Numbered from the stretch's first letter, positions 1 to 37,034 are shown. The stretch is DNA of 45,860 nt from a virus (IMGVR_UViG_3300027881_000001:1-45860), one strand, 5' to 3'. Notes: generated by a model not told the origin, from the sequence alone. Program-made: numbers and translations.

Positions 1-127
1 AAAAAAGGTCTTGGTGCCTACAAAAGCGAAGGCCTTGCTAAAACTGTTCGCGCAGAGTATGAATCATCTTTTTATCACAAAGAAGCCAAAAAATACGTCC
101 AGTTCTTTGAGCCAGCTGGAACCGAGG
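1..127. repeat. Terminal direct overlap; nt 1-127 are identical to nt 45734-45860 (circular-assembly overlap or short DTR)
   Basis: Read directly: the window starts aaaaaaggtcttggtgcc. The same string restarts at 45734 and runs to the last base. Unit length is 45,733 bp. Confidence 0.9.
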
Positions 128-1569
128 CCGTGGCCCCGGCTGACCGGCCTGAATGGTACATGAGTCATTACCCGGAAAAGGTTCCCGTCTTGGGCCATAT
201 TATAAGAATGGGTAACAGGAATTACGTAGAAACAATGAACATGATGATACAACTTGTTTGGGACAAGATAAGAACGCAAGATGTTCTAAATGGAGTGGAA
301 CCAACCAAGGCAGAACTGGGATTGCGCGGCAAATGGCTTATGTCTATGAGTGGTAGGCCGGAAATAGGTGGAGTGTTGGGAAAAAGAATTGCACCTATAT
401 CTACAGGGTTCTTCTTTTCGCCAAGGTTTGCCGTGTCGAGATTTACGTCGCCAATGTATCTGAGACATTTAGCGTCTGGCGACCCTGTTGCAAGGGCAGT
501 TGGCAAAAAAACAGCCGTTGCGTTTGCTTCATTTATAGGAACAAACATCGCCGCACTTGCACTTATGAAACTTGCGCTCGGCGATGATGTAACAATAGAA
601 CTTGACCCACGTTCTCCAGACTGGGGAAAGGGGAAAATTGGAACAACAAGAATAGATTTATGGGCTGGTTATCAACAGGCGGCAAGATTCTTAGTGCAGA
701 TGACTTTAGGCCAATATAAAACACAGGCCGGTGAAATTAAAGACGCAGAGAGGCTTGAAACTATTGGAAGATTTGTAAGAGGCAAAGAAAATCCTCTTGT
801 CTCGCTAATATCAGACTTGTGGGCAGGCAAAACGTATCAGGGCGACAGGCCATTCTCGCCGCCAAAGGGCGAGATGGGCAAGATATTAGACGGGCTTCAC
901 GTTCCCAAACTCATTCAAGGTGTTGGCAAAGAGGCATACCATAGGATGTTATTCCTTTGGGTTCAGGATTTTGCGGATGCGTCTAAAAACGATGGTTGGC
1001 CTATGGGCTTTGTTGCTGGTCCACTTTCGTTTTTTGGAACTAATACAGCATCTTATGAAGACACGGCTTTTACCAAACTCGCCAACTTCAAAAACAATAT
1101 TGCAGAAGCTGAACATGGCAAGCGATGGAAGGAACTAAATTCTTCTCAGCAAACAAGATTACTAAGAATGAACAAACAGGTAATTTCAGATTTGGAGTTG
1201 CAGGCCAAGGTAGAGGGCGCAAGAAGGGATGATTACGATTACGTTGGCAGGTTGATAGAGGACCAAAAGAAGGCAGGCGTAAAGGTTTATAAGAAGCTCA
1301 AGCCTGAGAACAAAAAACTTCTGGACGAGGCCGGAATATCTCTTGGCTTGGCCAGAAAAATAGGTGACTGGGAAATAGACAATAAGCGATATGAAAGGTA
1401 TCAGGAAATAACCGCCGAGATACTTGATGCCAAACTGTCGAGGCTGTCAGGCATGAATGGGTGGGAGAAGATACCGCTCAAGAGAAGGACGGCTAAGGTG
1501 GAAGGGGCTGTTCAGGCGTCCAAGGAAAAGGCGAAGGGTATGATGAGGCGGGAGGCAAAGGCCAAATGA
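1..1569 (+). CDS. C-terminal part of a wrap-around 1,106-aa internal virion (gp16-position) protein; the N-terminal part is at 43982-45860
   Basis: The frame is open from nt 1 (KKGLGAYKSEGLAK...). It is the same frame as the ORF starting at 43982 once the 45,733-bp period is applied. The track ORF 130..1569 is only the part after an internal GTG. Confidence 0.8.
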   Translation, partial: KKGLGAYKSEGLAKTVRAEYESSFYHKEAKKYVQFFEPAGTEAVAPADRPEWYMSHYPEKVPVLGHIIRMGNRNYVETMNMMIQLVWDKIRTQDVLNGVEPTKAELGLRGKWLMSMSGRPEIGGVLGKRIAPISTGFFFSPRFAVSRFTSPMYLRHLASGDPVARAVGKKTAVAFASFIGTNIAALALMKLALGDDVTIELDPRSPDWGKGKIGTTRIDLWAGYQQAARFLVQMTLGQYKTQAGEIKDAERLETIGRFVRGKENPLVSLISDLWAGKTYQGDRPFSPPKGEMGKILDGLHVPKLIQGVGKEAYHRMLFLWVQDFADASKNDGWPMGFVAGPLSFFGTNTASYEDTAFTKLANFKNNIAEAEHGKRWKELNSSQQTRLLRMNKQVISDLELQAKVEGARRDDYDYVGRLIEDQKKAGVKVYKKLKPENKKLLDEAGISLGLARKIGDWEIDNKRYERYQEITAEILDAKLSRLSGMNGWEKIPLKRRTAKVEGAVQASKEKAKGMMRREAKAK

Positions 1570-1862
1570 CCATTTACCCCCTCATTCGCGACCACGGCTT
1601 GCTTGGTGGTTTGGACGACAACGACCACGGCGCTATCTATTACACCGAGGCCGAGGTGGATGCCCTGTTTGGCGCTTACCTTGAACTTGACGGCGAGACT
1701 ACTGACGTAACCAACGGTACGTTTGACCTTACTACTACCGGCACATTGACAAGTACGGGCGGGATATTCAGTGTAGATGCCATACCCGGCGCGGGGGATT
1801 CTGTAGTAAATCAGTTGGTATGTCTAACCACAGACGGCGAGTTATATTTGAGGTTTACATGA
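1566..1862 (+). CDS. Small fibre-associated structural protein (HGLLGGLDDNDH...YY motif common in phage fibre N-termini)
   Basis: ATGA overlap with the upstream stop. TGA at 1860-1862 overlaps the next start. Motif recognised by eye. Confidence 0.5.
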   Translation: MTIYPLIRDHGLLGGLDDNDHGAIYYTEAEVDALFGAYLELDGETTDVTNGTFDLTTTGTLTSTGGIFSVDAIPGAGDSVVNQLVCLTTDGELYLRFT

Positions 1863-2620
1863 TAAGTATAGTTATTCCGTCTTACAAAGACCCGATGTTG
1901 CATAAGACTATCGGGTCGCTTTTAGATAATGCCGAGGGCGACATTGAGATAATCCCCGTCCTCGATGGCTATGACACTGAACTTACTAACGATGAGCGTG
2001 TCAGGCCGATTCGCCTTAGAAGTAATGTGGGTATGCGGGACGCTATCAATATAGGCGCTTCGCTCGCGCGCGGCAAGTATCTTATGAGGGTTGACGAGCA
2101 TTGCAGGTTCGGGCAGGGCTACGACATAATATTGACAGACAAAATACTTTACAATTGGATTGTTACGCCGAGACGGTATGAGCTTGACATAGAGAAGTGG
2201 GAGGTGATTGGCGAACCTATAGATAATGAGAGAATGATTATCGGCAGGAGTGTGATAGGCAAGAGGAAGGGCGGGCGTAAGTTCCACGCCCAGAACTGGC
2301 CGCAGGGGAACAGGGGAGAGTCGATATATAAAAAGACCGCCATGCAGGGTTCGTGCTGGATTATGGAGACGATGTTATGGCGTGATACTATCGGCAGGTT
2401 AGAGACTGAGGGGTATGGCGACTTGTATCAGGACACTACCGAGATGCTGTTCAAGATATGGCGTGTTGGTGGTAAGTTGATGTTGAATACTGATACATGG
2501 TACGCACATAAAGCAAGGAAGTTCAACCGTACCCACAGTTATCCGAGGGAAAAAGCGGAAGCGTCTTTCAAATACGCATTAGATAAATGGGAGGGGTTTT
2601 ACAGGGAGAGGGTTGCATGA
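1859..2620 (+). CDS. Glycosyltransferase, GT-A fold (GT2/GT27-like) with a DxH metal motif
   Basis: Refined start MISIVIPSYKD (ATGA coupling at 1859). Motifs seen: PVLDGYD, RVDEHCRF (D-x-H-C) and ...GSCWIM...FKIWRVGGKL..., resembling the WGGEN/CGG region of polypeptide GalNAc-transferases. Confidence 0.8.
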   Translation: MISIVIPSYKDPMLHKTIGSLLDNAEGDIEIIPVLDGYDTELTNDERVRPIRLRSNVGMRDAINIGASLARGKYLMRVDEHCRFGQGYDIILTDKILYNWIVTPRRYELDIEKWEVIGEPIDNERMIIGRSVIGKRKGGRKFHAQNWPQGNRGESIYKKTAMQGSCWIMETMLWRDTIGRLETEGYGDLYQDTTEMLFKIWRVGGKLMLNTDTWYAHKARKFNRTHSYPREKAEASFKYALDKWEGFYRERVA

Positions 2621-4692
2621 GTAAAGTTTCTATTATAATCCCCGCCCGCAACGAGATATATCTCGAACCGACCCTTAGAGATATATTAGCCAAGGCCAGA
2701 GGTGATATTGAAGTGCTGGTTGTGCTGGACGGTTACATCCCCGAACCGCAGATACACATGGACGACGACAGGGTTACTTTCATTCACTATGAAGAATCCA
2801 TAGGTCAAAGACCGGCCATCAATGCCGCCGCGCGTACAGCTACCGGAAAGTACATTCTTAAAACAGACGCTCATAGTATGTTCGACGAGGGGTTTGACGT
2901 TAAGTTACAAGAGGACTGTGAATACGATTGGACTGTCATTCCTCGTATGTATAATCTCGACGTAAAGAAGTGGGAGCCGAAATGGCACAAGAAAACGGAC
3001 TATATGTGGATTCGCTCTCCCCGCGCCAAGAAGAAGCCCTTCAGGCACTACTACTGGGATGGTAAATGCAAGACAGAACATCCTGAAGAATACAAGGCGT
3101 ACCGAGAGAGAACAAAGAACGCACCAGACATAGATGACGTTATGACAGGCCAAGGGGCTTGCTGGTTCATGCACAGAGAGCGTTTCTGGGAGTTGGGGGG
3201 ACTTGACGAGGGTCACGGCCAATGGGGCCAGATGGGCGTCGAGCTTGCCTGTAAGGCATGGCTGTCGGGCGGTCGTCATGTAGTCAATAAGAAAACGTGG
3301 TTTTCCCACTGGTTTAGAGGTGGTAGTGGTCCGGGCTTCCCATGGCCCGCAAGTGGCAAGAAACAGGAGGAGGCAAGGAAATACTCGCAGAAGTTCTGGC
3401 TTGGCGGGAAGTGGCCTTTACAGAAACATTCTATAGAGTGGCTGGCAGAGAAGTTTGCACCGCTTCCTGAGTGGGAGGTAAAGGACACTCGTGACCCAAA
3501 ACCACATACACAGGCTTATGCTTTAGCACAATGCAAACTACCGAAGAAAAAACTTATACCAGCTACGATTAAAACCAAAAGACTTAACGACACCGAGAAT
3601 AAGATGCCGTGGTTTGCAAAAGGCCATTGGTTCAGGGTTAAGACCCTATTCAAAGAGAGGTTAAGATTCGCCCGACCCGAACGGGCCGATGGTATCAGGT
3701 GGCAGGAGGAGTGTATTCCGCCGTTTGTTAAAGCTATTGTAGCTGGTGAGACTTTTACTGACGACGAATTGAAGAAGTTTGAGTATTACGACTATCTTGT
3801 TTCAAGACTCAACCCAAAGGTAAACCCGCCAGAAGGCCCGACCAGAAAGGGTGTTCGCCATGTCCTTAACTTGATGAAGGATATGATAAACTTAACTTAT
3901 AGTATGAGGGATGAGGGACTGAGAGCGCCGCTGGACTTCTTTATAAGGGGCGAGGTGGAGAACGGCAGGGACCGGGTTATATTGTGCCGGGGCGGGCGAA
4001 GGTTAGTGATAGCATACTATCTCGGCTGGAAGCATATACTCGGCAGGGTATGGCGAACAGAACATCTTTCAAAACGATTCATTCCTACGAATAAATGGCC
4101 CGATGGCGGTATTACTAAACTTGCCGCCGACCAGTTTGCCAAGCATGGAAAGTACGCTACCGATAAATACTGGAAGCACTGTTATACTTATCACTATGAC
4201 ATAGAATTAGCAGACCACAAAAACTCCCACCCCATAAAGATTCTGGAGCTTGGTGTGGCGCGCGGTGCTTCGTTAAAGTTGTGGAAGGACGCCTTCCCCA
4301 ACGCAAAGGTTTATGGTATCGACTCGAACCTTAAAAACATGAGGGAAGAATTTATTGACGATGAGATACAGGTCTTTCGGGGCGATATAAACAATGGTAA
4401 ATTCCTGAAAGAGATTGGCGAAGAACACGGCCCATTCAATATAATCATAGACGACTGTAACCACTTCCCCGCATCACAGAGAAGTGCCTTTGAATCCCTG
4501 TGGCCCTACCTTGAGTCGCAGGTGAACAGGGGCGGTAAGTATGTTATTGAAGACCTGCACCACAACTTCCGCGCCGAGGCGAACAAACCCATAGTTCCAA
4601 TGTTGACGGATATGGTAAGTGATATTTACAGGTCTAACGAAGTAAAGAATGTTTCTTTCTACCCAAATATAGTGTTTATAACAAAGGCGTAA
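2617..4692 (+). CDS. Three-domain fusion: GT-A glycosyltransferase (DxH), ParB/sulfiredoxin-like middle domain, CmcI-like class I SAM-dependent sugar O-methyltransferase
   Basis: Refined start MSKVSIIIPARNE (ATGA at 2617). GT motifs: VLDGY, KTDAHSMF, GACWFMHRERFWELGGLDEGHGQWGQMGVELACKAWLSGG. Middle domain: ILCRGGRRLVIAYYLGWKHI. C-terminus: ILELGVARGASLKLW...VYGIDSN...IIIDDCNH...GGKYVIEDL. Confidence 0.8.
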   Translation: MSKVSIIIPARNEIYLEPTLRDILAKARGDIEVLVVLDGYIPEPQIHMDDDRVTFIHYEESIGQRPAINAAARTATGKYILKTDAHSMFDEGFDVKLQEDCEYDWTVIPRMYNLDVKKWEPKWHKKTDYMWIRSPRAKKKPFRHYYWDGKCKTEHPEEYKAYRERTKNAPDIDDVMTGQGACWFMHRERFWELGGLDEGHGQWGQMGVELACKAWLSGGRHVVNKKTWFSHWFRGGSGPGFPWPASGKKQEEARKYSQKFWLGGKWPLQKHSIEWLAEKFAPLPEWEVKDTRDPKPHTQAYALAQCKLPKKKLIPATIKTKRLNDTENKMPWFAKGHWFRVKTLFKERLRFARPERADGIRWQEECIPPFVKAIVAGETFTDDELKKFEYYDYLVSRLNPKVNPPEGPTRKGVRHVLNLMKDMINLTYSMRDEGLRAPLDFFIRGEVENGRDRVILCRGGRRLVIAYYLGWKHILGRVWRTEHLSKRFIPTNKWPDGGITKLAADQFAKHGKYATDKYWKHCYTYHYDIELADHKNSHPIKILELGVARGASLKLWKDAFPNAKVYGIDSNLKNMREEFIDDEIQVFRGDINNGKFLKEIGEEHGPFNIIIDDCNHFPASQRSAFESLWPYLESQVNRGGKYVIEDLHHNFRAEANKPIVPMLTDMVSDIYRSNEVKNVSFYPNIVFITKA

Positions 4693-4693
4693 C

Positions 4694-4915
4694 ATGATAA
4701 TCGACACACAATCCACCCAATACCAGCAGTATTTAACAGGGTTGCAAAACCTTATTGATTTCTACAAGCCCAAGTTCGAGGTGTTCAAGAAACTGCCGCG
4801 GAGCAAACAAGCATTATGGCTTGAGAAAGACCCGCTGTTCAGGAAACTGATTAAGATAGGCTTGCACGTCGGGGACTGGTCCGGGCAGTTTGGTGCGGAG
4901 GTTCAAAATGATTGA
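4694..4915 (+). CDS. Hypothetical protein
   Basis: ORF tightly packed in the + strand operon, starting 2 nt after the upstream stop. Confidence 0.5.
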   Translation: MIIDTQSTQYQQYLTGLQNLIDFYKPKFEVFKKLPRSKQALWLEKDPLFRKLIKIGLHVGDWSGQFGAEVQND

Positions 4916-5303
4916 GTGGAAAAACTTTATGAAGTTGGATATAGCCGATATTCCAAAAGACACTGAGTACCAGCATTGCAACTTCTCTCAAAAGACCTGT
5001 ATTGACGAGGGTGGGGTTAAAAAAGGACACAGATTGTTCCCCGGCGACGACACGTCAAGGACGTTTATAAGATGTAATATGACAAACTGCGAACCGCCGC
5101 CTGGAAGCATCTGTGTTAAGTGCGGTGGTACAATTAAGGATTATGCTGTTCTTGGTAGTTTTGAAATCATAACTATAGATGGCGAAGAGATAATACAAAA
5201 CAACTACGTGGATATACTTTACGGTCGGTATCGTGATGGCTATCAATATTTACCAGTACCACAAGAAATCCCAATTAAGATAAAGTATTCAGGAGAAGAA
5301 TAA
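4908..5303 (+). CDS. Hypothetical Cys-containing protein
   Basis: Refined start at ATG 4908, preceded by GGAGG. Overlaps the upstream stop. The product contains HCNF...RCNMTNC...CVKCGG. Confidence 0.5.
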   Translation: MIEWKNFMKLDIADIPKDTEYQHCNFSQKTCIDEGGVKKGHRLFPGDDTSRTFIRCNMTNCEPPPGSICVKCGGTIKDYAVLGSFEIITIDGEEIIQNNYVDILYGRYRDGYQYLPVPQEIPIKIKYSGEE

Positions 5304-6358
5304 TGGCTGCTCCATACTATGTAACTCATAATGCTGGTGGTGGGGGGGTTGGGTCAGAGGTTGACCCCTTCACCCTTGCAGAAGCCTGTGATGCCGTGGC
5401 TGCTGGTGAAACTGTGTACGTTAAGGCTTCTGGTGCTTATAGCGTTCAGGATGGTGCGACAGGCTCTATTTTTTATCCATCCACAGCCGGAACTGTTACA
5501 ACACCTATAGTATGGCAGGGCTACCACACAACCATAGATGACGGTGGCATTGTTGAAATAGATGCCGACACTAATAATATGAATTACGCCTTGCTTGCAT
5601 CGGCGGCTACTATTCACTGTCAAGTGTTTAAGAATTTTGAATTTTGGGGTGCGAATACAAGGGGAGTAGCCTCTTCTGGCTCAGATAGTTGGGTATTTAA
5701 GAATTGCTCTATTCACGATACCAGTGGTGGAGAAGGTGTTGTTGGCGATAACACGTTAAAATTTGAAAACTGTATATCTTATAACAATTCAACAGCAGGT
5801 TTTGATGGAGACAGTAATGTCCTCTTTGTAGGCTGTGTTTCTCATGGAAATTCAGTTGGCTTTGCCTGTAACGTAGGGATTGGTTATGGCTGTCTTGGGT
5901 ATAATAATTCTGATGACTTTTTTCTTTCTCACGTAGGAAATACGCTTACTGGAATACTGGGTTGTACTACAGACGGAGAAGGTACTGAGGTTGCTTTTGA
6001 TTTTGACAACGCCGCAGATTCTTTTATGATGATAGCCTATAATAATATCTTTCGTGATAATACGACACCTATAGTCGTTGAAACTGACAGTGGTGAATTG
6101 CAAACTATTGGCAGGAACCTCTACGATGCAAAAGATAATGACAATTCCAACTGCCTTGTTGTGTCTGCTGGTGACGGAGTTGGAGACAGGGGCGACGTAG
6201 ATGGTGTGGATGCTGGATTATTTACTAACGAGGCGGGCGATGACTATTCATTGCCTGCCGACTCAACTGCTTTGGCAAGTGGACTTGACGCTCATTATAC
6301 AGTGTCTTTCTGGGCAGACTACAACGAAGGGGCAGGGGACAATCCTCCCGCAGAATAA
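5303..6358 (+). CDS. Right-handed parallel beta-helix (pectate-lyase-fold) tail/fibre protein
   Basis: N-terminus ...DPFTLAEACDAVAAGETVYVKASGAY. Repeated coils follow: FKNCSIHDTSG / FENCISYNNSTAG / FVGCVSHGNSVG. Confidence 0.7.
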   Translation: MAAPYYVTHNAGGGGVGSEVDPFTLAEACDAVAAGETVYVKASGAYSVQDGATGSIFYPSTAGTVTTPIVWQGYHTTIDDGGIVEIDADTNNMNYALLASAATIHCQVFKNFEFWGANTRGVASSGSDSWVFKNCSIHDTSGGEGVVGDNTLKFENCISYNNSTAGFDGDSNVLFVGCVSHGNSVGFACNVGIGYGCLGYNNSDDFFLSHVGNTLTGILGCTTDGEGTEVAFDFDNAADSFMMIAYNNIFRDNTTPIVVETDSGELQTIGRNLYDAKDNDNSNCLVVSAGDGVGDRGDVDGVDAGLFTNEAGDDYSLPADSTALASGLDAHYTVSFWADYNEGAGDNPPAE

Positions 6359-8026
6359 ATGGCTTGGAATACTCTTGATATTGGTAGTCAACAGCACGGC
6401 TCAGCGTGGAATGCGCTGGACATCGGGGCGGAACAGGCAGATGTGGCGGCAGGGTCGGTATCTCCTTCGCCGTCATCCAGCCCTTCAATAAGCGCATCGC
6501 CGAGCGTCTCCGCATCTCCGTCTGCCTCCCCCAGTATATCCGCAAGCCCGTCCATCTCTGCGTCACCATCATTAAGTCCTTCTGTTTCAGCCTCGCCAAG
6601 CGCCTCTCCGTCTATAAGCGCAAGCCCATCAGTATCTTCATCTCCGAGTATATCGGCAAGTCCATCATCCAGCCCAAGCATATCCGCGTCTCCGAGTACA
6701 TCTCCAAGTATATCGGCTTCCCCATCGGTATCAGCATCGCCGAGCGCCAGCCCAAGTATAAGTTCAAGTCCGTCAATATCAGCGTCTCCAAGTGCTTCGC
6801 CGAGCATATCATCTTCACCCTCTATATCTGCAAGCCCCAGTGCAAGCCCAAGCGCAAGCGCATCGCCGAGTTCGTCTCCGAGCATATCTGCCTCGCCATC
6901 TACTTCGCCGTCTGTCAGTTCCTCTCCGAGTATATCTGCATCGCCTTCGGCTTCACCGTCTGTTAGTGCAAGTCCGAGTTCTTCGCCTTCTATCTCTGCC
7001 AGCCCAAGCGCCTCGCCGAGTGTAAGTTCCAGCCCCAGCATAAGTGCTTCGCCCTCTGCCAGTCCGAGCGTTTCATCTTCTCCAAGTGTGTCGGCTTCGC
7101 CGAGCCTAAGCCCGTCAATTAGCGCCTCACCATCAGCAAGTCCTTCAGTTAGCTCCTCGCCTTCGGTCAGTGCAAGCCCATCTGCCTCCCCATCAATATC
7201 AGCCTCACCTTCAGTATCAGCTTCGCCGTCAAGCTCGCCATCTGTAAGTTCAAGCCCAAGTGTTTCAGCAAGCCCGTCATCGTCACCGTCCGTATCGGCT
7301 TCTCCGTCATCTTCACCGAGCGTATCTTCCTCGCCGTCTGTGAGCGTGTCGGCTTCACCGTCGTCCAGCCCAAGCGTTAGCGCAAGCCCATCAGCCTCGC
7401 CTTCAGCCACCTGGTACAAGGTAGTTACCGAAAAGGGCGGGTATGACATAGCTGGAACGAATACGATTGAAACGCTCAGGGTGGGAAATGTTCGCGGGAC
7501 ATCTTCTATATGGTGGAGAGTACAGCATGTTGACTTGTCGGCGGTGTCCAAGGGTGCCTCTAACGCAGTCTGGACGGCCCAGAGTGCAAATAACTTAAAC
7601 GGTTTCCAGTTAGACGCTGCCAATGAATATCTATACTTTAATACCCACATAGGCACAGACTGGGATGCGGCCAGTGATTTAGAGGTTGAGGTCCAGTTCG
7701 AGACAAACGCAGACAATTCAGGCGGGGGCGGGTCCGGCACTGATACGGTAAACTTCGATTTAGTTATGTACTATAAGGGTAGCGAAGAGACCGCCCAAAA
7801 GACACAAGTCCTTGCATCTTCGACCACGGTGGGAGAGGCAGCGCAGTATTACCATGAAAAAGCCACGTTTACAATCAATTACGATTTGGTTGACCATGTA
7901 GTTCAGGTGGGGGACTGTTGTTCATGGCGACTAAACTTAAACACAGACGATTCTGAGGTCGATGATGTAATAGTCCACCATGCAATGTTCAGATATAAAA
8001 CAAGTAAGCCAAGAGCAGAAGTATAG
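6359..8026 (+). CDS. Fibre-like protein: short N-terminus, roughly 316-aa Ser-Pro repeat stalk, roughly 205-aa globular (jelly-roll/lectin-like?) C-terminal domain
   Basis: The start follows the upstream TAA directly. The translation is dominated by SPSISASPSVSASPSASP... units. The non-repetitive C-terminus starts at ATWYKVVTEKGGYD. Confidence 0.8.
   Translation: MAWNTLDIGSQQHGSAWNALDIGAEQADVAAGSVSPSPSSSPSISASPSVSASPSASPSISASPSISASPSLSPSVSASPSASPSISASPSVSSSPSISASPSSSPSISASPSTSPSISASPSVSASPSASPSISSSPSISASPSASPSISSSPSISASPSASPSASASPSSSPSISASPSTSPSVSSSPSISASPSASPSVSASPSSSPSISASPSASPSVSSSPSISASPSASPSVSSSPSVSASPSLSPSISASPSASPSVSSSPSVSASPSASPSISASPSVSASPSSSPSVSSSPSVSASPSSSPSVSASPSSSPSVSSSPSVSVSASPSSSPSVSASPSASPSATWYKVVTEKGGYDIAGTNTIETLRVGNVRGTSSIWWRVQHVDLSAVSKGASNAVWTAQSANNLNGFQLDAANEYLYFNTHIGTDWDAASDLEVEVQFETNADNSGGGGSGTDTVNFDLVMYYKGSEETAQKTQVLASSTTVGEAAQYYHEKATFTINYDLVDHVVQVGDCCSWRLNLNTDDSEVDDVIVHHAMFRYKTSKPRAEV
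6461..7407 (+). repeat. Protein-level tandem repeat (SPSxSA hexapeptides mixed with SPSx tetrapeptides) encoded with diversified codons
   Basis: Roughly 50% Ser and 25% Pro in the translation. Ser is spelled tct/tcg/tca/tcc/agc/agt within neighbouring units, so the DNA repeat is imperfect. Confidence 0.85.
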
Positions 8027-8035
8027 GAGAACAAA

Positions 8036-8260
8036 ATGCCGCCAGTGGAAACATCGACAGAAACGCAGATGATACTAACTGAAATCGCCGAACTAAAAAC
8101 GGACATAAAAACTATCGACACCGCCATCAGGGGTAACGGCAAAGACGGCATCATGGTTGACATCGCCTGCCTCAAACAGTTCAGGAAGTTTGTCTGCTGG
8201 ATAGGGGCAAGTCTGTTTACGGGGGTGCTGTTAGTGCTGGTGGTCAGGTTGCTGATTTAG
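8036..8260 (+). CDS. Tail-anchored small membrane protein (holin/lysis-related candidate); last gene of the rightward late operon
   Basis: Amphipathic N-terminal half and a C-terminal hydrophobic helix, WIGASLFTGVLLVLVVRLLI. Confidence 0.45.
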   Translation: MPPVETSTETQMILTEIAELKTDIKTIDTAIRGNGKDGIMVDIACLKQFRKFVCWIGASLFTGVLLVLVVRLLI

Positions 8261-8520
8261 GCGAAAATTTTGGCAAGCAAGCGGGGGCCACCTTCGCTTG
8301 GCCCGACAGCCCAAATGCTACCATCTTTACATGCAACAATTATTTCGCCCTCAAAAGTCGTTACGGATACTATTACTTTGGCATCTGCGGGAAGCGGAGC
8401 AAACTCCATTCCCTTCCTGCGAGGAACGCCACAGGGCACAAAAGGAGCCTTTCCCCCTCCCCCCGCAAGGCAGGCAAGCGGGGCAAGGGCCAAGCCTTTA
8501 ATGAGTTCTCTTCTATTCAT
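8257..8520 (-). CDS. Small secreted protein with a twin-arginine (Tat)-like signal peptide, paralogue A
   Basis: N-terminus MNRRELIKGLALAPLACLAGGGG (RR + hydrophobic region). Confidence 0.55.
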   Translation of the reverse strand: MNRRELIKGLALAPLACLAGGGGKAPFVPCGVPRRKGMEFAPLPADAKVIVSVTTFEGEIIVACKDGSIWAVGPSEGGPRLLAKIFA

Positions 8521-8773
8521 GTTTTATCACCAAATCTTTCCATTTTGTGCCGTCATAAACAATCGGTGCAAATCGAGGGTTGGCGGCATACATTTTGTAT
8601 TGACTGTTGCAGTCAAGAAAGGCGGTTCTGGTATCTTTGTCAACAAACTCTTCTGGCAATTCTTTCATTGCCCTCAAATAAAACTCCCTTGCGGTTCTTG
8701 GTCTTCGTTTGGCCCCAACCAAAAATGGTAGCGGGGCAAGGGTTAAGCCCTTCATTAGTTCGCGCCGGTTCAT
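8513..8773 (-). CDS. Small secreted protein with a twin-arginine (Tat)-like signal peptide, paralogue B
   Basis: Refined start at internal MNRRELMKGLTLAPLPFLVG (ATG 8773). This avoids overlap with the upstream gene ending at 8784. Confidence 0.55.
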   Translation of the reverse strand: MNRRELMKGLTLAPLPFLVGAKRRPRTAREFYLRAMKELPEEFVDKDTRTAFLDCNSQYKMYAANPRFAPIVYDGTKWKDLVIKHE

Positions 8774-8783
8774 TGCTTTCCTT

Positions 8784-9707
8784 TCAATCAAACCATCCCT
8801 CAACATCCCATTCCCTCATAGAAATAACAGGCTTTGAGCGAGTAGTTCTTTTGCCACAAACAGTTACATTGTATTGATTAAACGGCTTTATCCTTATTTG
8901 CATACTACTGAGGGGGCGAGCAGGGTAGTTTGCTCTTGAATCGTAAGTTGGCGCGCCAACCGCATAACTCTTTAGCCAGCACCCCCAATTGCCTTTGTAG
9001 GTTCTTCTCTCGATTAACTCGTCCGGCATAGCTCCGCGACGAGGCATATACAAATGTAATTGGGGGGGGCGAATATCAAAAGTGTGAGAGTGCCCCCTAA
9101 TCACTATGTCGGCATCAAACGAATCCACAAGTTGCCTTAACTTGTTCGGCTCTGCGCCATCGCTGCGCCCTCCGCCCCATCCGTGAAAGACAAATATAGT
9201 TACCGACGACCCCTTGACATTGTTCGCAACTTTACACTTAAAATCAAACCTTATCCCAGACACGTCGGTAAGGTTCGGGGATTTTAATTCTTCACACATT
9301 ATGTAGTGGTGGGCGTTATTACTGTACTTCATAATATCCGACTCGTGGTTGCCCTCGATAAGCCCAATACACTTGTCTTTAATTGGGTCAACAATTTCTA
9401 CGAACCTTTTTCTTTGTTGTAAAGCAATGTCGGAAAGCGCGTCTTTTATTGTAGATGCCGGGCCAGAAAACAACCAGTCTGGAAGGGAGCGAGCATCAAA
9501 CCTTTTTAGGTCTTGCGGGGTAATGCAATCACAGTGGTCTCCGCCGCCGACCCATAGGGCGTTTGGTTGTTTTAGGATATGATTGACACATTTTCTGAAA
9601 TGCCCCTCAGCGCAATTCAGCGCACCTATGTGTACGTCGCCGAGGGGGTAAATGTCCACAAAATCCTTTTCTGACTTGACCCATATCTGCTTGCTTATTA
9701 AGTTCAC
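8784..9707 (-). CDS. Calcineurin-like metallophosphoesterase
   Basis: Ordered motifs GDVHIG, GGGDHCD, GNHES, HGWGG, GHSH. GTG start with an upstream GGGA. Confidence 0.85.
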   Translation of the reverse strand: MNLISKQIWVKSEKDFVDIYPLGDVHIGALNCAEGHFRKCVNHILKQPNALWVGGGDHCDCITPQDLKRFDARSLPDWLFSGPASTIKDALSDIALQQRKRFVEIVDPIKDKCIGLIEGNHESDIMKYSNNAHHYIMCEELKSPNLTDVSGIRFDFKCKVANNVKGSSVTIFVFHGWGGGRSDGAEPNKLRQLVDSFDADIVIRGHSHTFDIRPPQLHLYMPRRGAMPDELIERRTYKGNWGCWLKSYAVGAPTYDSRANYPARPLSSMQIRIKPFNQYNVTVCGKRTTRSKPVISMREWDVEGWFD

Positions 9708-28530: not shown

Positions 28531-30135
28531 ATGGATTTAACACCGAATGATGTAGCTTCAGTTAATGCTGCTTACTGGGCTGATTTGAACCTTATTCAGT
28601 TGCAGGCCGGGCGGTTTTCGTTCAAGGGCCATGAATATCAGAAGGAGCCTATGCAGTCCCGCGCCCGTCGCCGGGCCTACATGAAGGCTACTCAGGGCGG
28701 GTTTACGGAGATAGAGGTTCTTCGAAGTCTTCATGGCATGATACACAGGATTTTCCCGCAGGGCGTTTTATATACCTTTCCTACTACTGACGACGTGAAT
28801 GAGTTTAGTAAGTCCCGGTTCAATCCTTTAATCTTATCTAATCGTAAGGCGATAGGTCAGTTTGTCAAATCCGGCGGCAAGGGCACTGACACCGCATCAT
28901 TGAAGAAAATACATAATGCCTTTTTGTATCTTCGCGGTGCGCGTTTGAGCCAGAAGATTTCCGACCAGAACGAATCTTCCAAGATGAGAGGTATCCCGGT
29001 AGATTCTGTAAAATTTGATGAAGTTGACCTCATGGACGAGGATGTTATCGCCAAGGCCCGTGGCAGGATGGGCCATTCTAATGTAAAAGAAGAGGTATTT
29101 ATTTCCAACCCTCTTATCCCCGGCGAAGGTATAGATAAGATATTCGCCAACTCTGACCAGAGGCATTGGTTCAGAAAGTGCAGTTGCGGTGAGTGGACCT
29201 GTGCCGAACTCAGTTTCCCCGAATGCGTAAAGATAAAAGACGGAAAAGGATATATTGGCTGTAAGTGCGGCAAGGAGGTTCCAATTTACGCCGGGCCCGG
29301 CACCGCCGAGTGGGTTCCTTCTGTAAGAGAGAACTCGGACTTCATGCACGGGTACCGGTGGAGTCAGTTGACCTCTGCCTTCAACGACCCCGCCGAGATA
29401 CTGGATGCCTTTAACGACCCGCCCGAAGGAAACCTCGCCGATGTCTATCGACTGAGACTTGGCTTGCCTTATATCGCCGCAGAGGACAGATTGACCGAGG
29501 CGAATGTATATAACTGTTGCGGGACTTATATTCAGTCTCATACCCATACGGGCCCTTGTGCGATGGGCGTTGATGTCGGCAAGATTAAGCATGTACTCAT
29601 AGGGGTCAAGGTCGGCAGCGACCAGTACAAGATAGTTAAAATAGCTCAATTGAGCAGGTGGGAAGACATTCACGCGCTTGCGCGAAGGTTCAATGTTAAA
29701 AGTACGGTAGTTGATATAAGACCTTATGAAGACTCTGCAAGAAAGTTCCAGTCTGAAGTTAAGGGGCGGTGTTTTCTGTGTGAATACAAAGAGAACACCC
29801 CGCAGGGTACTGTTTATAACCAGAATACCGGGATAGTCAGTGTCAACAGGACGGAGATTTTCGATTTAACTCACAGAATGGTAATGACGCCGGGGATGCT
29901 GACTATTCCGATGCTGCATGAAGTGAAGGAATTTGCGAAACAGATGTGCGGGGCTTATAAGGTTCTTGAGACCAATAAGAAATCCGGCACCTCGATTTAC
30001 AGATATAAGGGCAAAAACGAACACTTCAGAAACGCCTTGAACTACTTCATATTAGCCGCAAAAGGCGGCCATATAGTAAGGGCCGAAGGTTACAGGAAAC
30101 CAACGACAGTAATAAATAATTATGCGAGGATATAA
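28531..30135 (+). CDS. terL: Terminase large subunit
   Basis: Walker-A-like KATQGGFTE and Walker B VKFDEVDLMDE. Size and position upstream of the portal fit. Confidence 0.85.
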   Translation: MDLTPNDVASVNAAYWADLNLIQLQAGRFSFKGHEYQKEPMQSRARRRAYMKATQGGFTEIEVLRSLHGMIHRIFPQGVLYTFPTTDDVNEFSKSRFNPLILSNRKAIGQFVKSGGKGTDTASLKKIHNAFLYLRGARLSQKISDQNESSKMRGIPVDSVKFDEVDLMDEDVIAKARGRMGHSNVKEEVFISNPLIPGEGIDKIFANSDQRHWFRKCSCGEWTCAELSFPECVKIKDGKGYIGCKCGKEVPIYAGPGTAEWVPSVRENSDFMHGYRWSQLTSAFNDPAEILDAFNDPPEGNLADVYRLRLGLPYIAAEDRLTEANVYNCCGTYIQSHTHTGPCAMGVDVGKIKHVLIGVKVGSDQYKIVKIAQLSRWEDIHALARRFNVKSTVVDIRPYEDSARKFQSEVKGRCFLCEYKENTPQGTVYNQNTGIVSVNRTEIFDLTHRMVMTPGMLTIPMLHEVKEFAKQMCGAYKVLETNKKSGTSIYRYKGKNEHFRNALNYFILAAKGGHIVRAEGYRKPTTVINNYARI

Positions 30136-30329: not shown

Positions 30330-30541
30330 TGCTTGCAGAACGACACTTCAAAAACGAAGACCCGATTAAGGACATGATTGCAAGGGCGCATCGGGTCGGG
30401 GCCTGTGATAGTTCCGGCAGGTCGGTTAAGCGGAGCGATGGGACGCTTGTCGCAAAGCCGCGCACCGGTTCATCTATGACTAAAACGTATGTTTTGCGCA
30501 ACGGAAAGGTTGTTGAGAAATGCCTGACGCAAGAGCAGTAG
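30329..30541 (+). CDS. Hypothetical small protein
   Basis: ORF within the operon. Confidence 0.4.
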   Translation: MLAERHFKNEDPIKDMIARAHRVGACDSSGRSVKRSDGTLVAKPRTGSSMTKTYVLRNGKVVEKCLTQEQ

Positions 30542-32145
30542 AAATAATCAAAGAGCAGGAGCGCGAAGAACAGAGCGCCTCTAACTTCCGTAATTTATAT
30601 CAGGAAGTCGCCGACCAGATGCTCCCGCGCGAGAACCAGATAACCAATTTCCGCACACCCGGTGAGGATAAGTCGAAGGAAATTTACGACCCTACCGCTA
30701 TGTTGGATTTGCAGGATATGGTGTCAGGTCTGTCGGCTGCGTTCTTTCCTTCCGGCGAGCTTTCGTTTGGTTTTACTGTAAAAGACAGACGTATTGCGAA
30801 CCTGGACCATGTTAAGAGGTACCTTGCGCTTGCGTCCCAGATTACACACGATGAGCTTTTTGCGGCCAATTTCATGTTACAGTTAAACGAGACGCTTTCT
30901 TCTTTGATAGGATTTGGTACTGGGAATTTGTTTTCTGAATGGAATATGGGTCTCAACTTCAAGGACTGGGATATATCTTTTTATACAATAAAGCAAAACA
31001 GCGCCGGGCTTGTGGATACTGTTATATTAAAATACCCACTCACTGCAAGGCAGGCCGTTCAGGAGTTCGGAGACAAGGCGGGCGAAAAGATTAGGCTCGC
31101 TATGGAAAAACCTGAAACCCAGTCGAAGAAGTTTTTCTTCATTCATCGTATAGGGCCGAGGGCGAAAAGGAACCGCAAGTTTTCTGATTTTTTGAATATG
31201 CCGATTGAATCTATATATGTAAACGTAGAAGAGCAGTTGATAGTTGACGAGGGCGGGTTTGAGGAATTCCCAAACGCGGTGCCGAGATGGAAGAAATCCT
31301 CGAACGAAAAATACGGGAGGGGGCAGGGAACTATAGCCCTGTCGGTGTCCAAAGAGTTACAGCAGATGCACGCCGATTTTATCGAATGCGGCAACAAGTG
31401 GAACAACCCGCCGAGAGAGGTTCTTTCGTCCGCCGTTGAGGGCAGGGTCGATGTGAGGCCTGGCGCGGATAACCGGGTTACGCAGATGAACTCTATAAAA
31501 TCACTCGACGACGGCGTAAAGGGAAATTTCAATATAACCGAAAAGTCATTTGAGTTCATACAGAATATAATTCATAGAATATTCTTCGTTGATGTATTCG
31601 CTCCGCTTGCAAACCTGCCGGGCGACAGGCGCACTACTACCGAAATCAGGGAAAGAATAAAACAGGCGTCGAAGAAACTTGCCAGTCCTATTTACAGGCT
31701 CTACAGTGAATTATTCACACCTGTTATTACAAGAAGCGCATTACTTTTAATTAGAAACGGGGTCATACCATATCCGCCCCCGGAACTTGAAGGTGCCGGG
31801 TTCGGGGTCGAGTACATTGGCGAGCTTGCGCTTGCAATGCGAGACCAGCAGACACAGGCGTTCAGGCAATTTGCGGGGCTTGTAACGGAACTTGACGCGG
31901 TATTTCCCGGCGCGAAAGATATTATAAATATCGACCGCGCTCTTCCTGATATTGCGTTTACTTATGGTACAAAGGTCGAACACTTATCAACTAAAGACGA
32001 AATCGACGCACAGAGAGAAGCGAGAGCCGCGCTGCAAGAGGCCAGGTTTGCGTTAGAGGCCGCGCAGTCCGGCGGACAGGCGTATCAGAGCGCTACAAAA
32101 GCGCCGGAGCGAGGTTCTCCGGCAGAGGCTATAATGGGAGCGTAA
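30520..32145 (+). CDS. Portal (T7-like head-to-tail connector)
   Basis: 541 aa. N-terminal pattern ...FRNLYQEVADQMLPRE...EIYDPTAMLDLQDMVSGLSAAFFP typical of podovirus connectors. Position fits. Confidence 0.8.
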   Translation: MPDARAVEIIKEQEREEQSASNFRNLYQEVADQMLPRENQITNFRTPGEDKSKEIYDPTAMLDLQDMVSGLSAAFFPSGELSFGFTVKDRRIANLDHVKRYLALASQITHDELFAANFMLQLNETLSSLIGFGTGNLFSEWNMGLNFKDWDISFYTIKQNSAGLVDTVILKYPLTARQAVQEFGDKAGEKIRLAMEKPETQSKKFFFIHRIGPRAKRNRKFSDFLNMPIESIYVNVEEQLIVDEGGFEEFPNAVPRWKKSSNEKYGRGQGTIALSVSKELQQMHADFIECGNKWNNPPREVLSSAVEGRVDVRPGADNRVTQMNSIKSLDDGVKGNFNITEKSFEFIQNIIHRIFFVDVFAPLANLPGDRRTTTEIRERIKQASKKLASPIYRLYSELFTPVITRSALLLIRNGVIPYPPPELEGAGFGVEYIGELALAMRDQQTQAFRQFAGLVTELDAVFPGAKDIINIDRALPDIAFTYGTKVEHLSTKDEIDAQREARAALQEARFALEAAQSGGQAYQSATKAPERGSPAEAIMGA

Positions 32146-33588: not shown

Positions 33589-34512
33589 ATGGCTGTTACC
33601 ATAGACCAGGTAACTTCCCAGAAGTTCGCTTCTGTGTTGTATCTACTCTCCCAGCAACAGGGTTCTAAAATGGCATCGAGGGTACGGAACGAATCTGTTC
33701 AAAGTGCCGAACTTGCGTATTTTGACACCCTTGCGGAAGACGACGATACTACACAGAAGACTGGCAGGCATCAGGGCACCTCTATTTCCGAGGCCGAGTT
33801 CGGCAGGAGAAGGGTAATACCTTATCCGTGGACGAACAAGAAGGCTTTGGATAAGGAAGACCTTGATAGAATGCTGCCAGACCCACGCAGTCCCGTAGCG
33901 ATGAACCAGGTCAGGTCGCTCGGGCGCAAAAAGGATGACCTGTTAATTACAGCGGCTTTGGGCAGCGCTTCTATCGGTAAGGCCGGTGGGAGTTCTGTTG
34001 ATTTTAAGGACGAGTCCGTGTCAATCAATGGCGACGGTACTGTAACTACTTTGGGCACACTTGCCGCGGTAGCGACTGTTGCCGATATATCTCTTGAGAA
34101 GATTCTGCTTATGATGAGGATATTCAATCAGGAAGATGTTGACCCTGACATTCCTAAACATTGGATGGTTACACCGAAGGCAATCGAAGACATGCTCAAC
34201 ATCACAGAATTGACCAGCTCGGATTATAACACTCTGAAGGCTTTGCAGAGAGGCAACTTTGAGGAAACTTTCGCCGGATTCAATTTCTTCTGGAGTAACA
34301 GGGTTACAAAAGACGCTGCTACTGAAACTGCTTATCGTTCAATCGCATGGGCGCAGGATGGATTAATCCTGGCCTCCATTGGCGACATTTCCACTCGAAT
34401 AGAAGAGGCTGAAAGACTCGATTACGCATGGGTACTCTTCTCGAAGATGGATTTGGGCGCCGTCAGAATGGAAGGCGTAAAAGTCCATGAATGCCTCAAT
34501 CAAGTGGCTTAA
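33589..34512 (+). CDS. Major capsid protein
   Basis: AAGGAG RBS. 307 aa. Position and T7 gp10-like N-terminal pattern. Confidence 0.8.
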   Translation: MAVTIDQVTSQKFASVLYLLSQQQGSKMASRVRNESVQSAELAYFDTLAEDDDTTQKTGRHQGTSISEAEFGRRRVIPYPWTNKKALDKEDLDRMLPDPRSPVAMNQVRSLGRKKDDLLITAALGSASIGKAGGSSVDFKDESVSINGDGTVTTLGTLAAVATVADISLEKILLMMRIFNQEDVDPDIPKHWMVTPKAIEDMLNITELTSSDYNTLKALQRGNFEETFAGFNFFWSNRVTKDAATETAYRSIAWAQDGLILASIGDISTRIEEAERLDYAWVLFSKMDLGAVRMEGVKVHECLNQVA

Positions 34513-34523
34513 AGGAGACTCTT

Positions 34524-35345
34524 ATGAGTACAGGATTTCAATTTAATAAAGGGCCTCTTTCTGATGGAGCTATGCCGAGGGACTGGGCACAATCTACCCA
34601 TGAATTCGGCATCCATGCGAGCGAGACCACGCAGAGGTTTGTATACGGAACTCGTTACGTTACATGGGATGGTAAGGTATGGAGATATTCTTTATCTACT
34701 GGTGCTTGTTATACTGAAAGAGGGAATTACTTCGCTAATACAATTTCCAGTGACGCTAACGGTATCGACTATTCCGTGCTTACCAACAACCAGTCCATAG
34801 GCGACAGGGAAGTAACTCTCACTAATGGTTCTACGGCGGTGGCGGAAGATTACTTTGCTGGTGGTCTTGTCGTTATTATCCCGACGGAAACCGTTACTGA
34901 TGGTCAAGTAATGCATCGGGGCATTATCGGCAATACTGCCGCTATTGCCACAACTGGCGAATGCACTTTGTACCTCGACTATCCAATAGATAGAGCGGTT
35001 ACAACTTCCAACTATGCTTATGCGATGCCATCCGGTTTTTCCAATCTTCTCTATGGAAATACTGGCGGCACAAAGTCTATTGCTGGTTTGGCCGGAGCGT
35101 ATGTTACTGCTTCTGGTTACAATTTCTGGTGCCAAACCCACGGCGCTTGCCAGATTACGAATGGTGGCTCAAGTGAGTGTGGCAAAACAACGTATTACAG
35201 AGGTTGTTGGTGGAGACATGATGGCACCATTGACATTTTTACCAACATAGGAACCTATGTTACAGACCAATTGGCCGGATTTGTTATTGACAATAACGCA
35301 GACGCTAATGGCGCAACTAACATCATGATGACCAACGGCTATTAA
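34524..35345 (+). CDS. Structural protein downstream of the capsid gene (head decoration/minor capsid candidate)
   Basis: Refined start MSTGFQFNKG (AAAGGAG RBS). Followed by a strong terminator. Confidence 0.5.
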   Translation: MSTGFQFNKGPLSDGAMPRDWAQSTHEFGIHASETTQRFVYGTRYVTWDGKVWRYSLSTGACYTERGNYFANTISSDANGIDYSVLTNNQSIGDREVTLTNGSTAVAEDYFAGGLVVIIPTETVTDGQVMHRGIIGNTAAIATTGECTLYLDYPIDRAVTTSNYAYAMPSGFSNLLYGNTGGTKSIAGLAGAYVTASGYNFWCQTHGACQITNGGSSECGKTTYYRGCWWRHDGTIDIFTNIGTYVTDQLAGFVIDNNADANGATNIMMTNGY

Positions 35346-35785: not shown

Positions 35786-35977
35786 ATGCCTGAAATAGAA
35801 GAGGAATGTGTTTTTTATACCCGCGCAGACCAGGTGCAGTTTAGGACATCGACTAATGGCGACCATCTGGTTATTAAAGGGTTTCGTTTGACTCAGGGAC
35901 AGGCCGCTACGCTTGCATGGCTAATCAACGAGGACGACAGTGCCCAGTTGGAATTTCAGATTAAGGTAAAAGAATGA
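35786..35977 (+). CDS. Hypothetical protein
   Basis: ORF within the operon. Confidence 0.45.
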   Translation: MPEIEEECVFYTRADQVQFRTSTNGDHLVIKGFRLTQGQAATLAWLINEDDSAQLEFQIKVKE

Positions 35978-36588: not shown

Positions 36589-37034
36589 TGGCGCATGAAA
36601 TAAGATTTGGCTATGCCCTTGATAAGACTCTCTGGGCCGCGGTTTTTAAGAACGACGGCGGTACGTTCAAGGTAAATATAACCGGAGGCGATACATGGGA
36701 GGCATGGGCCGACGCCAATATTGCAACTTACGACATATCTTTATCGGAAGGCGCGGGCGGCGGGACATATACAGCGACATTCCCGGTCATTGCGGCTGGT
36801 ATTTATCATGTAACCGTCTATGAAGGTTCGGTTGCGGCAACTGACCCGCCGGTTGGTCATGGCGAGATGGATTGGGACGGCACCGCCGAAGTGAATAATA
36901 CCGCCATTAAAACTTATATACTTTCAGATGTTATAGGTGATGACGGTGATACACTTGAGGTCCTGTCCGACCAGATGGACGCCCTGTCCGCCTCAAGTAC
37001 GGCAACGCTTAACGTGTACGGAGAGGGAGAATGA
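36588..37034 (+). CDS. Hypothetical structural protein
   Basis: Refined start MAHEIRFGYALDK (overlaps the upstream TAA). Confidence 0.5.
   Translation: MAHEIRFGYALDKTLWAAVFKNDGGTFKVNITGGDTWEAWADANIATYDISLSEGAGGGTYTATFPVIAAGIYHVTVYEGSVAATDPPVGHGEMDWDGTAEVNNTAIKTYILSDVIGDDGDTLEVLSDQMDALSASSTATLNVYGEGE

Follow-up and report, generated by a model that had tools for sequence, protein, structure and literature searches.

GT27-like glycosyltransferases and a sugar O-methyltransferase in the late operon of a T7-like phage, and their genomic coupling to serine-repeat virion proteins

Introduction

Which molecules does a phage modify with glycosyltransferases (GTs) of its own? The question is raised by a stretch of viral DNA of 45,860 nucleotides (nt) (IMGVR_UViG_3300027881_000001:1-45860; this whole stretch is called the window below), in which two adjacent GT genes, the second of them extended by a methyltransferase, lie among the late structural genes. 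Phage self-glycosylation has so far been shown only in a few mycobacteriophages. A preliminary description of the window, made from the sequence alone, read this cassette as a means of modifying the virion itself and proposed the protein encoded at 6359-8026 as a substrate. Comparative evidence supports that reading: the GT family resembles the polypeptide N-acetylgalactosamine (GalNAc) transferases (ppGalNAc-Ts, family GT27) and is coupled in genomes, over more than 100 loci, to virion proteins with long (Ser-X)n tracts, of which the 6359-8026 protein is one. The features on which the argument turns are the following.

1859-2620, + strand: GT1, 253 aa, a soluble GT-A glycosyltransferase of a GT27-like phage family
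2617-4692, + strand: 691-aa fusion protein (GT, ParB/sulfiredoxin (Srx)-like module and methyltransferase)
2617-3480, + strand: GT domain of the fusion (residues 1-288)
3604-4131, + strand: middle module of the fusion (residues 330-505), which begins with a helical part and continues in a probable ParB/sulfiredoxin-fold core
4144-4692, + strand: class I S-adenosylmethionine (SAM)-dependent, metal-dependent sugar O-methyltransferase domain of the fusion (residues 510-691)
6359-8026, + strand: 555-aa repeat protein, the candidate acceptor
6443-7432, + strand: (Ser-X)n tract of the repeat protein (residues 29-358)

Results

The glycosyltransferases resemble polypeptide GalNAc-transferases

GT1 and the GT domain of the fusion are paralogues (34% identity, E 4e-37), and both match the Pfam profile PF00535 well above its gathering cut-off of 23.3 bits (45.5 bits, E 1e-11, for GT1; 49.3 bits for the fusion). 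All motifs quoted in the preliminary description (RVDEHCRF, KTDAHSMF, FWELGGLDEGHGQWGQMGVELACKAWLSGG, CRGGRRLVIAYYLGW, ILELGVARGAS and IIIDDCNH) are present in the translations. The DxH metal motif corresponds to D79-E-H81 in GT1 (2093-2101), which also has H217 within WYAHKARK, and to D84/H86 in the fusion (2866-2874), where it is accompanied by a Gal/GalNAc-T-like motif (W203...G219) and by H231-x-F-R234. D84, H86 and H231 are invariant in 31 close full-length homologues; in 20 diverse family members D84 and H86 are still invariant and H231 is nearly so. The assignment of both proteins to GT-A enzymes of the DxH type thus stands.

A likeness to the Gal/GalNAc-T motif had earlier been noticed by eye. 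Single-sequence searches of solved structures place GalNAc-T4 and GalNAc-T10 best (E 1.7e-4 and 5e-4), and the closest solved relative of GT1 is GalNAc-T4 (5nqa). When the 20 diverse members, including GT1-type paralogues and homologues from metagenome-assembled genomes (MAGs), were combined into a family profile, the first 13 matches in the PDB were all ppGalNAc-Ts (GT27), with E values from 5e-14 to 3e-11. The alignment of the profile with GalNAc-T1 covers both halves of the domain and spans the motif, pairing lDaHc with LDAHCE, wgqvgvEvalKaWlsGG with WGGENLEISFRIWQCGG and aHlfR with GHVFR. Other profile matches (6p61, GalT1, 3bcv, chondroitin synthase and TagF, all GT2-type except TagF) are weaker and mostly confined to the generic N-terminal half, and ppGalNAc-Ts alone match the second half. 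Foldseek searches with an AlphaFold2 (AF2) model, whose predicted local distance difference test (pLDDT) score is 83, retrieved GalNAc-T2, T4 and T1 at E 3e-9 to 1e-7. As a likeness of sequence, the resemblance to ppGalNAc-Ts is statistically real, and the nearest solved relatives are these enzymes, not the GT2 enzymes of lipopolysaccharide (LPS), O-antigen or teichoic-acid synthesis.

NCBIfam assigns neither GT to a named family; its sub-threshold matches, PgaC, NodC and TuaG, reach about 20 bits against cut-offs of 180-550 and are limited to the N-terminal half. No transmembrane segment was found in GT1 or the fusion (maximal 19-residue hydropathy 0.74 and 1.06, respectively), and no ricin-type lectin domain was detected in either: the C-terminus of the fusion consists of the ParB/Srx-like module and the methyltransferase, and GT1 has no C-terminal extension. 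Lacking both the lectin domain and the membrane anchor, the two enzymes are best placed outside GT27, although they appear to act as GT27 enzymes do. Many members of the GT family (for example L033, L081, L062, L313 and L314) carry a CxxC...CxxC zinc-ribbon insert just past the PRMYNL strand, which is absent from both window GTs.

The candidate acceptor is a long serine-repeat protein

The 555-aa protein is composed of a 28-aa N-terminus, a (Ser-X)n tract and a C-terminal region of 197 aa, about 170 of which make up a conserved domain. The tract runs without a break in a single register, in which Ser occupies 159 of the 165 alternate positions, and its X residues include P (61), A (41), V (21), I (17) and S (17). 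The tract draws on all six Ser codons, and only short arrays are reported by Tandem Repeats Finder, which argues that the tract is maintained at the protein level and is no simple DNA repeat. The plus frame runs free of stops into the conserved C-terminal domain, which recurs in two other proteins, and is therefore the real frame. No other protein of the window has a Ser/Thr-rich tail or tract.

The two proteins that share the C-terminal domain (7514-8026) are the short P0122 and P0123, both without a Ser-X tract and one of them with a signal-peptide-like N-terminus. Three database relatives of the domain were found in all, two of them tract-free and on short contigs, and none in Pfam, PHROG, NCBIfam or the PDB; on its sequence distribution the domain appears to be a portable module. 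Gene callers miss open reading frames (ORFs) of the tract type: JGI calls a 181-aa C-terminal fragment (P0121) of the window protein, and others call minus-strand ORFs within the repeat. Such mis-called ORFs were noted at 6359-8026 in the window, 13127-14764 in L001, 16621-18201 in L002 and from 5772 onward in L281.

The GT family is coupled to serine-repeat virion proteins

Every homologous locus inspected has long ORFs of the SPSASPSVSASPS type. For counting, a tract was defined as at least 48 residues covered by 24-residue windows in which at least 83% of alternate positions are Ser/Thr. Tract ORFs so defined occur in 59 of 83 loci anchored on the GT, and in 25 of the 27 that have more than 5 kb on both flanks. 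The tracts lie without exception on the strand of the GT (80/80), often abutting its gene directly. When the GTs were clustered at 70% identity, 37 of 47 clusters included a tract-bearing locus, and among MAG loci the proportion was 25 of 49. On candidate-phyla-radiation contigs of 150-450 kb, the GT gene lies directly 5' of genes for repeat proteins of 900-1260 aa. A GT27-like GT adjoins (Ser-X)n proteins in a Zambryskibacteria MAG (L313, 149-kb contig), in Parcubacteria (L314, 455 kb) and in Patescibacteria (L290, 453 kb); the neighbours in L313 are a DegT aminotransferase, a GT2, a TOD1/MUCI70-like GT and a dockerin/Big_6 protein.

A neutral control consisted of 79 loci anchored on tail tubular protein B, with flanks of at most 10 kb that reach the cassette position only partly in the closest relatives of the window phage. 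In this set a tract is present in five of seven loci with the GT, the other two having the GT at their extreme end, and in one of 72 loci without it (Fisher p = 5e-6). The single tract-bearing locus without a GT, L256, starts at a contig end and leaves uncovered the region upstream of tail tubular protein B, in which the related L249 and L041 have their GT. The near-perfect coupling of the GT family to such proteins, together with their scarcity in relatives free of the enzyme, strengthens the case for the 6359-8026 protein as a substrate.

The coupling spans several gene orders, with the GT after the capsid gene (L002), upstream of the tail tube (L094, L249) or after the internal virion proteins (window). 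In L002, L005, L020 and L094 the homologue of tail tubular protein B stops early, at about residue 684, and in L002 (13944-18201) the next ORF joins a (Ser-X)n tract to the missing C-terminus of that protein; this arrangement could reflect a nozzle protein that is split or interrupted, or else an artefact of assembly or frameshift. Other tract proteins match phrog_8510, annotated as 'virion structural protein'. On account of the tail tubular protein B C-terminus and the phrog_8510 matches, the tract proteins are regarded as virion proteins.

The fusion protein ends in a sugar O-methyltransferase

The C-terminal domain of the fusion had been described as a class I methyltransferase of the CmcI/rhamnosyl type. 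It is indeed a class I sugar O-methyltransferase, but of another kind: at E <= 0.1 the window protein has no match to PF04989 (RMNT_CmcI) and matches PF13578 alone, below cut-off, and the best phmmer matches of residues 510-650 are MycE (3ssm, E 5e-21) and 8ia9 (E 1e-14), the latter listed as demethylmacrocin O-methyltransferase by the sequence table and as SpnK by the Foldseek table. Foldseek agrees, with E values of about 7e-16 to 1e-15 to MycE/SpnK-type structures, and the domain also matches phrog_21658 (E 4e-16). Its key residues are E544/G546 in the SAM motif, D612/D613, H616 and E645/D646. The metal ligands and the catalytic His of MycE align to D613/E645/D646 and H616, which are invariant in 31 homologues; in MycE these are presumably D275, E303 and D304, with H278 as the base, if a 20-residue tag offset is assumed in the PDB chain. 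By sequence, the nearest enzymes thus appear to be macrolide-sugar O-methyltransferases of the MycE/SpnK type and not CmcI proper, and the conserved sugar-methyltransferase residues speak against a DNA methyltransferase.

In a sister subfamily of about 480 aa, the same GT domain is joined straight to a true RMNT_CmcI domain (PF04989; E 5e-39 in L016, 1e-29 in L045), and some longer relatives consist of two GT domains, the middle module (mid) and the methyltransferase (MT), in the order GT-GT-mid-MT. The sister subfamilies make the joining of a GT to a sugar O-methyltransferase a recurrent fusion, which argues that the sugar receives the methyl group.

The ParB/sulfiredoxin-like segment seen in the preliminary description is consistent with both sequence-profile and fold searches, each of which is weak. 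Its core (about residues 410-490; 3844-4086) has an invariant R458-G-x-R461-R462. Of 14 matches of a module profile, 12 are sulfiredoxin, ParB, Noc or KorB, all over R-G-x-R-R and all weak (E 0.012-1.9), and ParB_N matches 5 of 18 members with a best E of only 0.006. In an AF2 model of the module (pLDDT 88.7), nearly all top Foldseek matches are ParB/Srx proteins (probability 0.9-1.0, E 0.01-1). A ParB/Srx fold is likely. An auxiliary domain of the MycE kind had been suggested by a Foldseek alignment of about 400 columns and was rejected, as the isolated module matches ParB/Srx only. Stand-alone mid+MT proteins of about 360 aa exist, near in length to the two-domain MycE, and indicate that the module is part of the methyltransferase unit.

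The enzyme family is large and confined to uncultured sources

The preliminary description had called the three-domain fusion unusual; it proves instead to be widespread in metagenomes, though uncharacterised. A word-indexed search gave 1534 relatives at E <= 1e-5 among 8000 candidates scored, many of them full-length fusions of 45-72% identity, and an exhaustive profile search gave 891 clusters (50% identity) at E <= 1e-30, all uncultured. A scan of viral contigs with a single protein found nothing, and relatives surfaced only with an alignment as query. Among 50,697 phage records the GT domain has a single match, a faecal metagenomic fragment, and megablast of positions 1-8100 against the same records gave none. 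A set with one genome per bacterial or archaeal species yielded 49 matches, every one in a MAG (Patescibacteria, Gammaproteobacteria, Planctomycetota, FCB group, Cloacimonadota and Omnitrophota).

The cassette lies in the late structural operon

The window represents the complete genome, about 45.9 kb, of a T7-like podophage in circularly permuted form. Its ends split the gene of a 1106-aa internal virion protein (1-1569 and about 44100-45860), which is intact in a sister assembly. A frame shift where the window ends join fits 14 nt that are extra in the public contig. The other genes of the late region are as follows.

28531-30135: large terminase
30520-32145: T7-type portal
33589-34512: major capsid protein
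34491-35345: 284-aa ORF, sharing 22 nt with the end of the major capsid gene
35974-36588: tail tubular protein A
37031-39544: tail tubular protein B
39546-41606: pectate-lyase-like tailspike
41607 onward: internal virion proteins, the last of which (1106 aa) ends at 1569
1566-1862, + strand: 98-aa protein of unassigned function, directly 5' of GT1 and ATGA-coupled to it
4694-4915, + strand: 73-aa protein without assigned function, kept beside the cassette in L282
4890-5303, + strand: Cys-rich 131/137-aa protein without assigned function, kept beside the cassette in L282
5303-6358, + strand: 351-aa protein without assigned function, beta-helix-like by eye only
8036-8260, + strand: holin candidate of 74 aa, closing the late operon, whose C-terminal transmembrane helix is strongly hydrophobic

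The GT cassette comes directly after the gene of the last internal virion protein. The two GT genes are adjacent and translationally coupled, as had been described: ATGA overlaps occur at both junctions (98-aa gene/GT1 and GT1/fusion), each preceded by a Shine-Dalgarno-like GAGG/GGGAGAGGG, and gene calls of 98, 253, 691, 73, 131 and 351 aa, all overlapping or abutting, are reproduced in an independent assembly of this phage. A position between internal-virion and fibre genes had also been proposed. The first half of this holds; the downstream genes are putative fibre genes. On the coding strand of 1566-8260 a promoter/terminator scan, otherwise uninformative, found no terminator-like site, and the only transmembrane segment encoded in this block is that of the 74-aa terminal protein, 3' of which transcription switches direction. 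The position is not that of a lysogenic-conversion gene: no integrase-sized ORF, flippase or GtrA/GtrC-like gene was found in the annotated parts of the window. The replication genes tested (DnaB, PD-(D/E)XK nuclease, NinG and metallophosphatase) include no base-modifying enzyme of the hydroxymethylase, TET/JBP-like or thymidylate-synthase-like kinds.

The 351-aa protein has no relative in Pfam, PHROG, NCBIfam or the PDB. The 284-aa ORF, conserved at this place behind the capsid gene in 10 or more related phages, matched no known family. Immediately 3' of the late operon, on the opposite strand, a pair of small paralogues (8257-8520 and 8513-8806, both -) start with MNRRELIKGLALAPLACLAGG and MNRRELMKGLTLAPLPFLVGA, which resemble twin-arginine (Tat) signal peptides.

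Discussion

What, then, does the cassette modify? Enzyme family, fold, catalytic residues, operon position and the coupling to (Ser-X)n virion proteins are directly supported by the data. Building on this comparative evidence, we consider it probable, at roughly 60%, that the cassette carries out a cytoplasmic, mucin-like O-glycosylation and O-methylation of a virion fibre. The enzymes would be expressed with the late structural genes, late in infection, and as soluble GT-A enzymes of the Mn2+ type they would draw on the nucleotide-sugars of the host. They would add sugars, in the cytoplasm, to serine hydroxyls of the tract in the 555-aa protein, one GT initiating and the other extending the glycan or serving other sites; the MycE-type methyltransferase, with its ParB/Srx module, would O-methylate the transferred sugar. 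The product may be an extended, protease-resistant 'bottle-brush' stalk, dense in glycans, that displays the C-terminal domain on the virion surface. GT27 enzymes link GalNAc from UDP-GalNAc in the alpha configuration to Ser/Thr of proteins; for the window enzymes, the genomic coupling is the evidence that bears on the acceptor. We infer the acceptor, the order of action, the identity of the sugar, its methylation and the function of the glycan from the comparisons above.

Several observations weigh against this reading. The related loci cannot count as phylogenetically independent, and co-occurrence is no proof of an enzyme-substrate relation. Two of the 27 well-flanked GT loci, L029 and L052, lack a tract. 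In the reverse direction, the GT was found at about three of ten SPS-type repeat loci with short flanks, and a DNA pattern scan of the SPSA type returned mostly Thr-Pro linkers and giant-virus contigs, again with short flanks, giving a weak reverse estimate. The lectin domain and the membrane anchor of ppGalNAc-Ts are missing, the middle module is without an explained role, and the C-terminal domain of the 555-aa protein is functionally unassigned and is found elsewhere without a tract. No cultured phage among the 50,697 records has the GT domain, and the glycan itself is predicted from genes alone.

The alternatives differ mainly in the acceptor. The enzymes might glycosylate other virion proteins (capsid, tail, tailspike) or some other protein, with the tracts being unmodified flexible linkers that travel with fibre modules. 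Such an arrangement would fit the GT pair of L002, directly 3' of the major capsid gene and three paralogues of about 258 aa, as well as the GT and methyltransferase directly 3' of the major head gene in mycobacteriophage Omega, and viral contigs without the GT commonly encode Ser/Pro-rich and Thr/Pro-rich linkers. It is nevertheless unlikely, given that the window's other proteins have no such tail or tract, that GT-negative relatives lack such tracts, and that the coupling persists over varied gene orders, carrier proteins and MAG loci attributed to bacteria. Still less probable is an action on host envelope glycans (LPS O-antigen, capsule or teichoic acid), leading to receptor masking or superinfection exclusion. 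Phage GTs are classically tied to seroconversion (PMC12619734), most polysaccharide GT2 enzymes belong to PF00535, and the N-terminal halves of the window GTs match PgaC, NodC and TuaG weakly. However, those matches fall far below their cut-offs, the second half of the GT domain points to ppGalNAc-Ts only, the GTs have no transmembrane segment and no flippase or GtrA/GtrC-like partner in the annotated window parts, and the cassette sits in the late structural operon and not next to an integrase. An envelope target would also leave the (Ser-X)n coupling unexplained.

A third possibility, hypermodification of the phage DNA, supposes that hydroxymethylated bases are glycosylated and methylated while the ParB-like module binds DNA or nucleotides. 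ParB/Srx modules bind nucleotides, and those of ParB, KorB and Noc belong to DNA-binding proteins. In mobile elements, fusions of such modules to DNA methyltransferases are frequent. Glycosylation of DNA by phage GTs has precedents (10.1101/2023.12.21.572611). The replication genes tested, however, include no base-modifying gene, the methyltransferase has the active site of a sugar O-methyltransferase and no DNA-methyltransferase motifs, the GT fold and motifs are GT27-like, and the cassette genes are late, not early; DNA as the target is very improbable. Modification of the fibre remains the preferred reading.

A broader proposal is that the GT family is the prokaryotic and viral counterpart of eukaryotic GT27 and forms, with the (Ser-X)n proteins, an unrecognised 'prokaryotic mucin' system. 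This is put forward tentatively, at somewhat less than even odds. If it is true, the family may be a sister or source lineage of eukaryotic GT27, the system would occur widely, both among uncultured phages and among bacteria of the candidate phyla radiation and other groups, methylated glycan bottle-brush fibres would be carried by virions and perhaps by cell surfaces too, and annotation would be blind to the system because gene callers mis-call the repeat ORFs.

If fibre modification is correct, phage self-glycosylation extends to a large and environmentally widespread set of phages, in which a GT27-like enzyme family and an acceptor design based on hundreds of alternating serines would both depart from precedent. 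A literature search, with most subscription papers outside its coverage, turned up no account of phage enzymes of the GT27-like kind in partnership with Ser-repeat virion proteins. Fibres coated in glycan could influence virion stability, shielding, adhesion and host recognition. The finding names a specific pair of enzyme and candidate substrate that is directly testable, provides prokaryotic and viral relatives with which the origin of mucin-type O-glycosylation may be traced, and exposes a systematic annotation gap, in which gene callers as a rule overlook (Ser-X)n genes or place them on the wrong strand.

Comparison with known systems

The GtrABC seroconversion GTs of temperate phages share with the cassette a phage-encoded enzyme of the GT2 superfamily. 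They are membrane-bound, work with a flippase partner on O-antigen and are encoded beside integrase/att, and none of these features was found for the window cassette. The methyltransferase shares the class I SAM fold, the Mg2+ ligands and the catalytic His of MycE, SpnK and TylE (3ssm, 8ia9), which act on deoxysugars bound to macrolides or spinosyns; unlike these, the window unit has a ParB/Srx-like N-terminal accessory module and is fused to a GT.

With GT27 (GalNAc-T1/T2/T4/T10, PGANT9 and Toxoplasma GalNAc-T3) the window family shares the GT-A fold, the DxH motif, the His of HxFR and a Gal/GalNAc-T-like motif, W-G-x4-E-x3-K/R-x-W-x2-G-G. In GT27 enzymes, DxH and the third His (HxFR) serve as Mn2+/UDP ligands. 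The likeness extends to the acceptor, as mucins are Ser/Thr- and Pro-rich repeat proteins. The window family differs in lacking the ricin-type lectin domain and the type II (lumenal) membrane anchor, in its low identity of about 15-18%, in its distribution over prokaryotic viruses and MAGs (candidate phyla radiation and other bacteria), and in being fused to a methyltransferase or, in many members, carrying the zinc-ribbon insert.

In mycobacteriophages, genes for GTs and O-methyltransferases are likewise embedded in the structural operon, for example those of Corndog gp35-38 (PMC4351075). Capsid and tail-tube subunits are glycosylated in Che8, Corndog and Myrna, as relayed from Freeman 2023 by PMC12363180, PMC11256854 and PMC12619734; by these accounts the enzymes are made in infected cells, are absent from the virion and act on virion proteins, at the C-termini of the capsid and tail-tube subunits. 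Here the candidate acceptors are instead long (Ser-X)n tracts in fibre-like proteins, and the phage is a T7-like podovirus, in contrast to siphoviruses and myoviruses of actinobacterial hosts. The window methyltransferase is homologous to mycobacteriophage ones, namely Omega gp17 (33% identity) and that of McProf. In Mycobacterium phage Omega (L332, 11321-13248), the genes of gp16 (GT) and gp17 (methyltransferase) lie directly 3' of the major head protein gene, a layout that resembles the virion-glycosylation layout of other mycobacteriophages. The Omega GTs were rejected as relatives of the window GTs (hhalign probability 8% for gp16 and 0.1% for gp23); tblastn gave no mycobacteriophage GT match, and the hhalign comparison covered the Omega GTs, not those of Che8 or Corndog.

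On the acceptor side, the serine-rich repeat glycoproteins of Gram-positive bacteria (Fap1, GspB, SraP and others), which use GtfA/GtfB (PMC6973325, PMC7948813), also have alternating Ser-X dipeptides over hundreds of residues, forming a stalk that presents a terminal domain. They are glycosylated in the cytoplasm before assembly or export, and the same is proposed for the window tract. In those systems a GT-B pair, GtfA/B, initiates glycosylation and export depends on the accessory Sec pathway (SecA2/SecY2). None of GtfA/GtfB or SecA2/SecY2 is present among the annotated window ORFs, small ORFs having been only partly scanned, and the X residues of the window tract are, by comparison, rich in Pro, Ala, Val and Ile. 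Taken by sequence, the closest relatives of the enzymes appear to be the eukaryotic ppGalNAc-Ts; by analogy, the closest biological precedent would be the virion glycosylation of mycobacteriophages, and the closest analogue of the acceptor the serine-rich repeat adhesin of Gram-positive bacteria (PMC6973325).

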